Source: a virus (Duplodnaviria > Caudoviricetes). From it: a stretch of 64,000 bases of DNA. This document shows positions 14,282-15,715 of the stretch, one piece after another. The first letter of the stretch is position 1, and each line of letters begins with the position of its first letter. The position numbers and the translations under genes were made by a program. The stretch lies in IMG/VR virus record IMGVR_UViG_3300018012_000099. One strand, given 5' to 3'. Under the pieces are notes generated by a model that saw only the letters and a program-made list of their open reading frames with translations, was not told the DNA's origin and ran no database searches.

Positions 14282-14677
14282 ATGGATAATGCACTAAAGA
14301 ATAGTAATACTAAATTTGTTTTGATTGGCAAAATTAATGGCTTGGCGGATCAGTCCAAGAAAGCCAGAATTCATATTAAAAAAGCTAAAACCGAGCAAAG
14401 GGTTTGGAAATTAGCTTATCGTAAGCATGTTGTGGGAATTGATATTCGCCATCACCTATTGGCATATGCCTTTCTGCGTGGCAAGCCGTATCGCAAGGTA
14501 GAAGCTAAATGTAGTGAATTCAACAAGCCCTATCCCTATTTAATCTTTAAAGTTATTGAGCAGCACGCACCGTATTATGTTTCGTACCAGTTTAGAGAGA
14601 GCGGCGTTGGCGTTAGAAACTACCAACCTACCCTGAATGACGTTCAAGGTTGGCTCAGTGGTTTGGAGGGTCTTTAA
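14282..14677 (+). CDS. Basic hypothetical protein, first gene of the attenuated operon
   Basis: Strong SD AAGGAG; 131 aa, K/R-rich, 'HHLLAYAFLRGKPY'. Confidence 0.7.
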   Translation: MDNALKNSNTKFVLIGKINGLADQSKKARIHIKKAKTEQRVWKLAYRKHVVGIDIRHHLLAYAFLRGKPYRKVEAKCSEFNKPYPYLIFKVIEQHAPYYVSYQFRESGVGVRNYQPTLNDVQGWLSGLEGL

Positions 14678-14707
14678 CACATGCCCTAGCTTGAACTCAT
14701 CCGAGAC

Positions 14708-15259
14708 ATGCAACAGTGTCCCCAAACCGAAACGCAATCTGTTTATCAGCATGGTCTCTCTGTTAAAGAGCATATTTTCCAGGTGATTAGCTATCTGGAA
14801 ACTGGATACATCTCTGGTGCGTGGCGATTGCCCCAATGGCTTATTGAATATCGCACACAGATTCTTGATAAACTTCTCCCCAAAGAAATTATTGAAGAAT
14901 ACGCAATTTTTCATGATTGTGGAAAACCTTATTGCCTTATTTTTGATGAAAATGGGAAAAGGCATTTTCCTAATCATGCCGAAAAATCTTATCATACCTG
15001 GCTTTCTATTGGGGGTTCTGAACAAGCTGCAAAATTGATGAGAATGGATATGATGATTCATACAATAAAGTCTTCTAATATTGATGACTTTATTACGCAT
15101 CCTGAAGCGATTACTCTACTAATTGCCGGGCTGGCTGAAATTCACTCCAATGCCAAGATGTTCGGCGGAATCGAATCTGATTCTTTCAAAATTAAGTGGA
15201 ATCAAATTAACAAACGTGGTCATGCTATTTGTCAGAAATTATTCAAACAAGGAAACTAA
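14708..15259 (+). CDS. HD-domain phosphohydrolase-like protein
   Basis: 'HGLSV...FHDCGKP...FPNHA...MDM..H' HD-GK signature. Confidence 0.75.
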   Translation: MQQCPQTETQSVYQHGLSVKEHIFQVISYLETGYISGAWRLPQWLIEYRTQILDKLLPKEIIEEYAIFHDCGKPYCLIFDENGKRHFPNHAEKSYHTWLSIGGSEQAAKLMRMDMMIHTIKSSNIDDFITHPEAITLLIAGLAEIHSNAKMFGGIESDSFKIKWNQINKRGHAICQKLFKQGN

Positions 15260-15260
15260 T

Positions 15261-15596
15261 ATGTGTTTATAGAACGAAAAACTGTATATTATCGTAAGAA
15301 AAGATTTAACCCCAGGAGCTAAACTGGCACAATCAGTGCATGCTGCTTTTAGATTTGCGGATGAGTGGAGATATACTACTCAAAAATGGCTGGACAATTC
15401 CGAATACATTTGTATTTTGGAAATTGAGAATGAAAGTCAGCTAAAAGAATTATTACAACGAGCTCGGGAGCTTGATATTCCTAACTCTAGTTTTACTGAG
15501 CCTGACTTTAATAATTCATTAACTGCCATCGCTCTAGCGCCATGCCCAGAAAGTAAAAAACTTTGCAGTGCACTGCCGTTAGCCCTGAAAGAATAA
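15261..15596 (+). CDS. PTH2-like peptidyl-tRNA hydrolase with in-frame UAG at codon 4
   Basis: AAGGA RBS, then ATG TGT TTA TAG AAC GAA AAA CTG TAT. In frame (75 nt) with the track ORF at 15336. The PTH2-type N-terminus 'KLYIIVRKDL..G..LAQSVHAA' lies upstream of the track start. Confidence 0.8.
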
Positions 15597-15644
15597 AAGT
15601 TACAGAAACAGTCGACATATAGTGGGAGAGGTTCTTCCATTCAT

Positions 15645-15715
15645 CCGCCTTTGGTATAGTGGCTGTGCCGCCAACTCTAAATTGGCAGAGCTGTGTTCAA
15701 ATCACAGAAGGTGGG
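15645..15715 (+). tRNA. Amber suppressor tRNA (anticodon CUA) #1, CCA not encoded
   Basis: Acceptor CCGCCTT/AAGGTGG, anticodon arm GCCAA-CTCTAAA-TTGGC, T-arm CTGTG-TTCAAAT-CACAG. The 3' end is followed by CAA. Confidence 0.85.

Follow-up and report, generated by a model that had tools for sequence, protein, structure and literature searches.

A 64,000-nucleotide (nt) stretch of viral DNA, IMG/VR record IMGVR_UViG_3300018012_000099 (Duplodnaviria; Caudoviricetes; hereafter the window, meaning the whole stretch), carries two adjacent genes that each contain an in-frame amber codon just after the start. The first encodes an HD-like phosphohydrolase (14681..15259, plus strand, including the segment with the stop). 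The second encodes a protein resembling peptidyl-tRNA hydrolase 2 (PTH2; 15261..15596, plus strand). Next comes a tRNA gene with a CUA anticodon, that of an amber suppressor (15645..15716, plus strand, called by ARAGORN). Upstream of the pair lie a short leader open reading frame (ORF) that also contains an amber codon (14188..14229, plus strand) and an ORF for a 131-amino-acid (aa) basic protein, a putative accessory (14282..14677, plus strand). The upstream neighbor of this module is a transfer-messenger RNA (tmRNA) gene (13232..13585, plus strand; Rfam RF00023, 89.9 bits). Spacing is tight: 3 nt separate the 131-aa ORF from the ATG of the HD gene, 1 nt separates HD from PTH2, and 48 nt separate the PTH2 stop from the tRNA-CUA. 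An earlier note, made from the letters of this DNA, had proposed a translation-rescue operon induced by amber readthrough, and every element that it listed, from the leader to the tRNA-CUA beside the tmRNA, is present in the sequence. Here, we refer to the N-terminal in-frame stops as gates. We propose, with a probability of roughly 0.8, that the gates and the tRNA form a suppressor-tRNA-dependent translational switch on an HD and PTH2-like pair of putative tRNA-3'-end enzymes.

The gates and their conservation

The PTH2-like gene opens with an AAGGA Shine-Dalgarno (SD) sequence 6 nt before ATG 15261, followed by TGT, TTA, and, as codon 4, TAG (15270-15272). Another 107 codons precede the TAA at 15594-15596, and the first canonical start after the TAG comes only 22 codons on. 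The claim of the earlier note that this gene needs its own readthrough fits both this arrangement and the conservation of the in-frame stop. The HD gene reads ATG (14681), CCC, TAG (14687-14689), six conserved coding codons (L-E-L-I-R-D), and then ATG 14708. This last Met is the HD start used by gene callers, and from it a 183-aa ORF (14708-15259) runs to a TAA at 15257. Two to three sense codons precede the gate TAGs in the window. The earlier note recognized the gates of the leader and of the PTH2-like gene, both of which stand, and missed that of the HD gene. The window sequence is found in at least 13 wetland metagenome runs. In a strain variant from run X7, HD has lost 3 nt in frame and carries an A>G substitution (positions 14720 and 14766), and both TAG gates are kept.

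Nine IMG/VR relatives with HD proteins 63-73% identical make up, together with the window, a close set of ten loci. Common to the nine is the order tRNA-Thr cluster, tmRNA, HNH gene and 131-aa gene where present, HD, PTH2, one or two tRNA-CUA genes, NadA, IF3, and tRNA-Arg. In all ten loci, the PTH2 gene consists of an SD-preceded ATG, one or two codons, TAG, and conserved coding sequence with no conserved alternative start after the stop. The HD gene, again in all ten, consists of ATG, one to seven codons, TAG, x-x-L-I-x-D, and then the annotated Met. Substitutions in the stretch from the TAG to the HD Met are of coding type, with conservation strongest at codon position 2 and weakest at position 3 (codon-position entropy 1.10/0.69/1.32, versus 0.91/0.63/1.03 in the known coding part). 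Likewise, the PTH2 residues that follow the gate, I-K-x-G-D-K-L-Y, are conserved under synonymous changes. Together, the codon-position pattern and the synonymous changes argue that the residues after the stop are translated.

A profile search enlarged the set to 84 loci (HD identity 36-100%), including those of the cultured phages XacN1 and RsoM2USA; the 84 contain near-duplicates and comprise 73 distinct HD sequences. Neighborhood conservation, which the earlier note had put forward as a test of its reading, is found throughout this set: HD and PTH2 are neighbors, in either order, or are fused in about 80 of the 84 loci. Specifically, a PTH2-like gene lies on the same strand within about 1.7 kb of HD in 78 loci, two more loci have a more canonical PTH2, and 13 carry fusions (HD-PTH2 in four, PTH2-HD in nine). 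An N-terminal gate (ATG, 0-10 codons, TAG) is present on HD in 61 of 84 loci and on PTH2 in 61 of 78, and about 81 of the 84 loci possess at least one gate. Most genes scored as "ungated" form the second half of a fusion in which the leading domain bears the gate. Some gates comprise nothing but an ATG and a TAG ("start-stop" units), and the base after the PTH2 gate is a purine in all tabulated loci.

As a control, we compared stop types at all sites with ATG, at most 10 codons, a stop, and at least 50 open codons in 699 kb of related loci. At HD and PTH2 N termini, the stop is TAG at 126 sites, TGA at 15, and TAA at 6. Elsewhere in the same 699 kb, the counts are 54, 80, and 90, respectively. 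The N-terminal TAG pattern is far beyond chance. In G001, a complete relative of 447,763 bp, an SD-preceded ATG followed by at most 8 codons, TAG, and a long ORF occurs four times genome-wide, and two of the four are HD and PTH2; the equivalent patterns with TAA and TGA occur three times each. Apart from the pair, another small gene family begins with ATG-GAA-TAG and an ATG one to three codons later in two loci (L008, 5629; L009, 7522). The start of this family could mark one more gated gene or be due to chance.

Both cultured phages carry gated HD genes and tRNA-CUA. XacN1 has two tRNA-CUA genes adjoining its tmRNA, and RsoM2USA has one. In XacN1 (L002, AP018399.1), ORF364 (3567-4427) is an HD-PTH2 fusion. 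An ATG-AAG-TAG unit with a good SD lies 21 nt before the annotated ATG, for which no SD is obvious. ORF364 is a candidate target of the two CUA suppressors of XacN1. In RsoM2USA (L001, MG752970.1), an unannotated PTH2-like ORF (2851-3177) that starts SD-ATG-TTA-TAG-ATT occupies the gap between RsoM2USA_93 and RsoM2USA_92, and the TAG that terminates RsoM2USA_92 doubles as the in-frame gate of the HD gene RsoM2USA_91. The authors of the XacN1 genome study read through 18 annotated amber stops for extensions and found no targets for the CUA suppressors (PMC5852040). The suppressor tRNAs of RsoM2USA and Atu_ph07 were reported with no specified targets (PMC8504454; PMC6102473). Searches that extend annotated genes past their stops could not see gates, because a gate precedes the annotated start.

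Suppressor tRNAs and codon-anticodon covariation

The tRNA-CUA that ARAGORN calls at 15645-15716 has a 7-bp acceptor stem, a 5-bp anticodon stem, and a TTCAAAT T-loop. Among the 84 loci, 39 have a tRNA-CUA on the same strand within 4 kb of HD, often as the sole tRNA there. G001 encodes 37 tRNAs, and its only suppressors are two tRNA-CUA genes about 0.5 kb after PTH2. The suppressor tRNAs of relatives score 58-64 bits against the Rfam tRNA model. Their bodies are heterogeneous, with 47 distinct CUA sequences, and nearest-neighbor comparison with typed phage tRNAs pointed to no consistent isoacceptor as their amino acid identity. Rfam's only match on the window tRNA-CUA is sub-threshold (27 bits) and on the opposite strand, to the plastid ycf2 5'UTR family. 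Presumably that family and a plastid tRNA gene overlap, in which case the tRNA has a body like that of plastid/cyanobacterial types; we treat this as a lead only.

A second tRNA-like element, read from the sequence, lies downstream of NadA (17215..17289, plus strand). It has a CTCTAAA anticodon loop (CUA) and an encoded CCA, and it aligns with the tRNA-CUA genes of relatives at the syntenic post-NadA position. The element belongs to a second class of CUA tRNAs that have a noncanonical T-loop and lie after PTH2 or NadA (L003, 5371-5441; L011, 6396-6468; and the window copy). Each member in the relatives is missed by one of ARAGORN and the Rfam tRNA model, and the window copy is missed by both. 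The conserved positions of this class indicate that many relatives carry two unlike suppressors.

The decisive result is covariation between gate codon and suppressor anticodon: TAG gates pair with CUA and TGA gates with UCA, and the switch was made twice independently. In locus L083, both genes have TGA gates, and two tRNA-UCA genes and the tmRNA lie 1-3 kb away. G008, the complete genome to which L083 belongs (342,591 bp), encodes 41 tRNAs, of which two are UCA and none is CUA. Loci L077 and L082 have TGA gates on HD, and the tRNA regions of their contigs carry one and two tRNA-UCA genes, respectively, and no CUA. TGA gates together with UCA, and with CUA missing, are found in G006, G007, and G008. 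On a maximum-likelihood HD tree, the TGA gate state needs two changes, both forced by well-supported branches. Specifically, L077 and L082 are sister to the TAG-gated RsoM2USA/L080 pair, and L083 is nested among the TAG-gated L105, L112, L098, and L099, all with the same post-gate peptide. Such covariation is not expected of a reinitiation upstream ORF, a pseudogene, or an artifact. As judged by comparison of these sequences, a conserved, gene-specific N-terminal nonsense codon is matched to a co-evolving, co-located suppressor tRNA.

Further observations concern individual phages. Locus L051 has a TAG gate on HD and a tRNA-UCA (at 1947) among 21 nearby tRNAs in a 262-kb contig, and it is the one possible covariation mismatch. 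The two TGA gates of G008, at 201067 and 202715, share an identical 13-nt context (TCG TGA GTC ACT C) in a phage of 57% GC, which suggests selection on the sequence around the gate. We also considered, and rejected, the general rule that the suppressor drives stop-codon avoidance. The rule holds in the window and in G001, where TAG is rare, and fails in G008.

The predicted enzymes, the accessory gene, and their surroundings

The HD-like protein matches PHROG 14850 (E 9e-62), which is annotated "unknown function." No Pfam family, HD models included, matches it at E<0.01, and its approximately 1000 homologs are all unnamed and have no Pfam domains. Residues H15, H69-D70, H90, and D114 are invariant in 15 HD-like sequences down to 44% identity. 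The AlphaFold model is all-helical, with a predicted local distance difference test score (pLDDT) of 94. Its clear best match among solved folds is residues 256-448 of 3wfq, the Aquifex CC-adding tRNA nucleotidyltransferase (VIA Z 14.4, 151 residues, root-mean-square deviation 2.8). Other HD enzymes (PPX/GppA, PhnZ, PgpH, YfbR) reach Z 7-10, at most 9.9, and the top Foldseek matches are the same. The predicted structure supports membership in the HD superfamily, as the earlier note had it, and places the protein closest to the HD region of CC-adding tRNA nucleotidyltransferase. We rejected a split or intron-interrupted HD gene, a notion connected with the match of the window protein to positions 90-268 only of the 270-position PHROG profile. 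The match is partial because profile members called with TAG as glutamine (Q) fuse an upstream ORF (P0111), and stand-alone proteins of about 180 aa are the norm.

The PTH2-like protein matches Pfam PTH2 (PF01981; E 4e-11, 43.5 bits versus a cut-off of 23). The match begins right after TAG 15270, and 23 of 25 family members match. The family profile, A4, aligns with 2zv3, the Pth2 of M. jannaschii, over profile positions 2-102, its full length (E 2.2e-10). PTH2 in jumbo phages has been noted previously (Iyer et al. 2021; PMC7824862). A complex prediction for HD plus PTH2 gave a score of 0.00; controls were not run, and the result weighs neither way. From their families and folds, we infer that the HD and PTH2-like proteins would act on tRNA 3' ends. 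By analogy with those families, peptidyl-tRNA clearance and tRNA end repair are their plausible roles.

The 131-aa protein differs from the pair in its distribution. Its 92 homologs all lie within this phage group, and the gene is present in some loci only, those of a subclade. The earlier note took it for a member of the operon: it is indeed adjacent, and it is a subclade-restricted, variable add-on rather than a core member. Structure prediction produced a confident fold, a helical hairpin plus a small beta unit (AlphaFold, pLDDT 90), and no convincing structural match. Searches of Pfam, PHROGs, Foldseek (PDB, AFDB), and a full VIA search returned generic helical-hairpin matches only (Z at most 6.9) and no Pfam or PHROG match, and Foldseek against AFDB gave one weak cluster named "Transposase" (E 0.011).

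The 131-aa gene is preceded by the amber-gated leader, M-K-D-Y-L-TAG-I-K-T-R-A-P-P-TAA, which has 13 codons, with its TAG at codon 6 (14203-14205) and its TAA at 14227. A leader of the form M-x-x-TAG-[IV]-[KR]-x-R-[A/S/D]-P-P lies upstream of every 131-aa homolog examined (L003, L007, L010, L144, L145/L148, L149), and L050 has a weaker version. With L145 and L148, which share one leader sequence, counted once, there are seven distinct leaders (window, L003, L007, L144, L149, L010, L145/L148). They end in TRAPP, PRAPP, SRAPP, ARAPP (twice), SRSPP, and SRDPP. In three of four minimum-energy folds, the CUCC within the CCUCC of the leader Pro-Pro codons pairs with the SD GGAG of the 131-aa gene; the window leader fold is no more stable than shuffles (z -0.98). 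In the subclade, the 131-aa gene appears to be a third cistron under amber control, by a different mechanism. Where no SD is visible, a GATATA(T)A-like box lies approximately 6-12 nt before the first gated ATG, at 14170-14187 in the window and upstream of the leader or gate ATGs in L003, L007, L008, L009, L010, and L041-L047. This box may be a phage promoter that gives a very short or leaderless 5' end.

The window as a whole is about 37% GC, has nearly all of its genes on the plus strand, and appears to be part of a huge phage. Its genes encode a DnaE-type polymerase, SbcCD, NadA, IF3, HNH endonucleases, tRNAs, and the tmRNA, which occupies the same position in L003, L004, L007, L011, L041, L046, and L083. 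An HNH endonuclease gene (13627-14166) sits between the tmRNA and the leader. It is one of three paralogous HNH/endonuclease VII-like genes in the window (11392-12096, 13627-14166, and 17278-17832) that are interspersed with tRNA, tmRNA, and translation genes. Their presence differs among relatives, as expected of mobile homing endonucleases.

A proposed switch, its rivals, and known systems

The notion is that ribosomes would start at the good SD/ATG of the HD-like and PTH2-like cistrons and meet UAG after 0-10 sense codons. When charged suppressor is lacking, release factor 1 (RF1; RF2 for TGA) would free a peptide of 1-10 residues, and no enzyme would be made. Once the phage tRNA-CUA is made and charged, the UAG would be read and the full enzymes would be produced. 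In the subclade with the 131-aa gene, the suppressor would carry ribosomes past the leader UAG to a putative R-A-P-P arrest site, and a ribosome stalled there would uncover the SD of the 131-aa gene. Because the gate resides in a nonconserved N-terminal tail, any inserted amino acid should be tolerated. Placement at the N terminus would also make failure cheap, and the irrelevance of the inserted residue fits the heterogeneous suppressor bodies. A purine usually comes next after the gate, and in E. coli such a context is reported to favor suppression. The idea in the earlier note that suppressor availability turns on the HD and PTH2 pair is supported by the co-conservation of the genes, the conserved stop, and the covariation.

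If the gates were ordinary upstream mini-ORFs, the TAG would be a true stop, the enzymes would come from reinitiation or an independent downstream start, and the suppressor would be unrelated. This account draws on the bare ATG-TAG gates, on the conserved in-frame ATG 6-12 codons after the HD stop, and on gene callers, which annotate the downstream ATG. Reinitiation, however, is indifferent to stop identity, yet TAG accounts for 126 of 147 stops at these N termini versus 54 of 224 elsewhere, and the stop becomes TGA exactly where the suppressor is UCA. Moreover, no canonical start is conserved in PTH2 beyond the stop, though the residues there are conserved as protein, and substitutions between the HD stop and its downstream ATG are of coding type. 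We therefore consider mini-ORFs improbable. A lone window with a stop at codon 4 could also look broken, the result of pseudogene decay or assembly error. Conservation refutes that view, to which we attach next to no weight: the same kind of stop is seen in about 80 loci, drawn from many samples, in ORFs that are otherwise intact and conserved. Both TAGs recur in contigs from independent wetland runs, and they are not assembly errors.

Were TAG a sense codon throughout (code 15), the gate TAGs would be ordinary sense codons. Phages that recode stop codons with suppressor tRNAs are known (bioRxiv 10.1101/2021.08.26.457843), and some gene callers translated relatives with TAG as Q. The stops of the window, where ORFs were handled mechanically with no gene finder, could be taken in the same sense: the 86 greedy ORFs end in TAA (60), TGA (23), and TAG (3), all three of the last being doubtful minus-strand ORFs. 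Against this, reading TAG as sense in the window merges no real genes, no other credible window gene contains an in-frame TAG, and essentially no gene there ends in TAG. In G001, ORF coverage is the same, 0.885, under code 11 and with TAG as sense, long ORF pairs split by a stop show no TAG excess (TAG 21, TAA 111, TGA 45), and TAG terminates 29 of 642 ORFs. Furthermore, a free synonym would not stay locked to a single N-terminal site in proteins that share only 36-70% identity. The window phage and G001 use the standard code; we rejected genome-wide recoding and regard this explanation of the gates as very improbable. Insertion of pyrrolysine or selenocysteine at UAG or UGA, which we rate lower still, has in its favor only the anticodon-based ARAGORN labels "Pyl" and "SeC." The tRNAs are of ordinary size (72-78 nt) with the heterogeneous bodies described above, the gate lies in a variable N-terminal tail and not at a catalytic position, and a search that was not exhaustive found no pyl or sel genes among the annotated ORFs of the window.

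Several points weigh against the proposed switch. We infer readthrough itself from comparison only. Given the conserved ATG that HD keeps 6-12 codons after its gate, some initiation or reinitiation could bypass the gate, and the HD gate may then act as a modulator of expression more than as a strict license. Loci L052, L057, and L102 have no gate, and several loci gate only one of the two genes. The window tRNA-CUA noted earlier stands as an ARAGORN call; it has a 3-bp D stem and falls below the Rfam tRNA threshold even at E 10. The element at 17215-17289, with its noncanonical T-loop, received no ARAGORN or Rfam call in the window. In G008, TGA is the commonest ordinary stop (212 of 404 ORFs). 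The suppressor there must thus be weak or strongly context-dependent, not strong and global, which fits a dedicated gate. Regarding co-transcription, a promoter/terminator consensus scan gave fewer hits than in shuffles and carries no weight, and all 13 runs in which the sequence occurs are DNA-typed wetland metagenomes, with no RNA run on record. Finally, catalysis by Pth2 involves the Asp of a D-A-G motif and the Lys of a G-K motif. In the PTH2-like family, an invariant E-P-D replaces the canonical D-A-G, and the canonical Lys, present in the window copy (G-A-K), is Tyr or Gln in most relatives. Peptidyl-tRNA hydrolase activity is not assured.

What the suppressor-dependent switch would accomplish can be framed in three ways. 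We tentatively favor, at odds short of even, a logic in which output of clean-up enzymes tracks phage tRNA/suppressor activity relative to RF1. Enzyme production would then follow expression of the tRNA-tmRNA island and scale with readthrough load. A simple infection timer or AND gate strikes us as a less likely alternative, and homeostatic negative feedback on the suppressor itself as slightly less likely again. More broadly, we lean modestly toward the view that the suppressors of many standard-code jumbo/huge phages exist mainly for a private switch that licenses the HD and PTH2-like pair, plus the RAPP-leader accessory, and that reports the balance of phage tRNA versus release factor.

This proposal offers specific, conserved targets for the long-unexplained suppressor tRNAs of standard-code jumbo phages. 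The two cultured phages that carry gates, XacN1 and RsoM2USA, make it directly testable. A cognate tRNA plus a co-evolving one-codon gate would constitute a compact, gene-specific switch and, if true, nature's equivalent of the engineered AND gate built on amber suppressors. The analysis also defines a widespread HD and PTH2-like pair of putative tRNA-end enzymes, fused in both orders. The findings are relevant to translational control, phage takeover of host translation, genome annotation, and orthogonal-translation engineering.

The components of the module have recognizable relatives. The HD-like protein resembles the A. aeolicus CC-adding enzyme (PDB 3wfo-3wfs) in its best structural match and its invariant H...HD...D; unlike that enzyme, it is a stand-alone 183-aa protein that lacks the nucleotidyltransferase head and neck. 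The PTH2-like protein resembles Pth2 (PF01981) in its above-cut-off Pfam match and its full-length profile match to a solved archaeal Pth2. It differs in being always paired or fused with the HD protein, gated by a stop codon, and equipped with E-P-D in place of D-A-G. Analogous to the RAPP arrest peptides ApdA and ApdP (PMC7897499, PMC10951233), the phage leader is short, ends in R-A-P-P, and precedes a gene whose SD may be sequestered. The known peptides regulate Sec/YidC components and have no stop codon before the motif, whereas the arrest motif of the phage leader would be reachable only after amber readthrough, and the downstream gene is that of the 131-aa phage protein.

Phage stop-codon recoding with phage suppressor tRNAs (codes 15 and 4) is known from the preprint by Borges et al. 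(10.1101/2021.08.26.457843) and from a metaproteomic study of crAss-like phages (PMC9523058). There too, phage tRNA-CUA or tRNA-UCA is proposed to make genes with in-frame stops depend on the phage's own decoding. In those phages, in-frame stops are scattered over a large number of genes, predominantly late ones, in what amounts to a recoded genome. By contrast, gated phages use the standard code and place a single N-terminal stop in two or three translation-related genes, at a position conserved across distant relatives. The suppressors of XacN1, RsoM2USA, and Atu_ph07 are the same kind of tRNA-CUA/UCA in large, tRNA-rich myophages; the N-terminal HD/PTH2 gates went unnoticed in the published analyses of these phages, and we found no published description of such gates.

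Classical cases of regulation by in-frame stops include readthrough to make the Q-beta A1 protein and MuLV gag-pol, and the autoregulatory in-frame UGA of RF2 (prfB). In these cases, as in the phages, an in-frame stop is a regulatory decision point that gauges termination against decoding capacity. The classical systems involve C-terminal extension or frameshifting and host near-cognate tRNAs. In the phage gates, the stop stands at codons 2-11, and a dedicated cognate suppressor is encoded beside its target and co-evolves with it.

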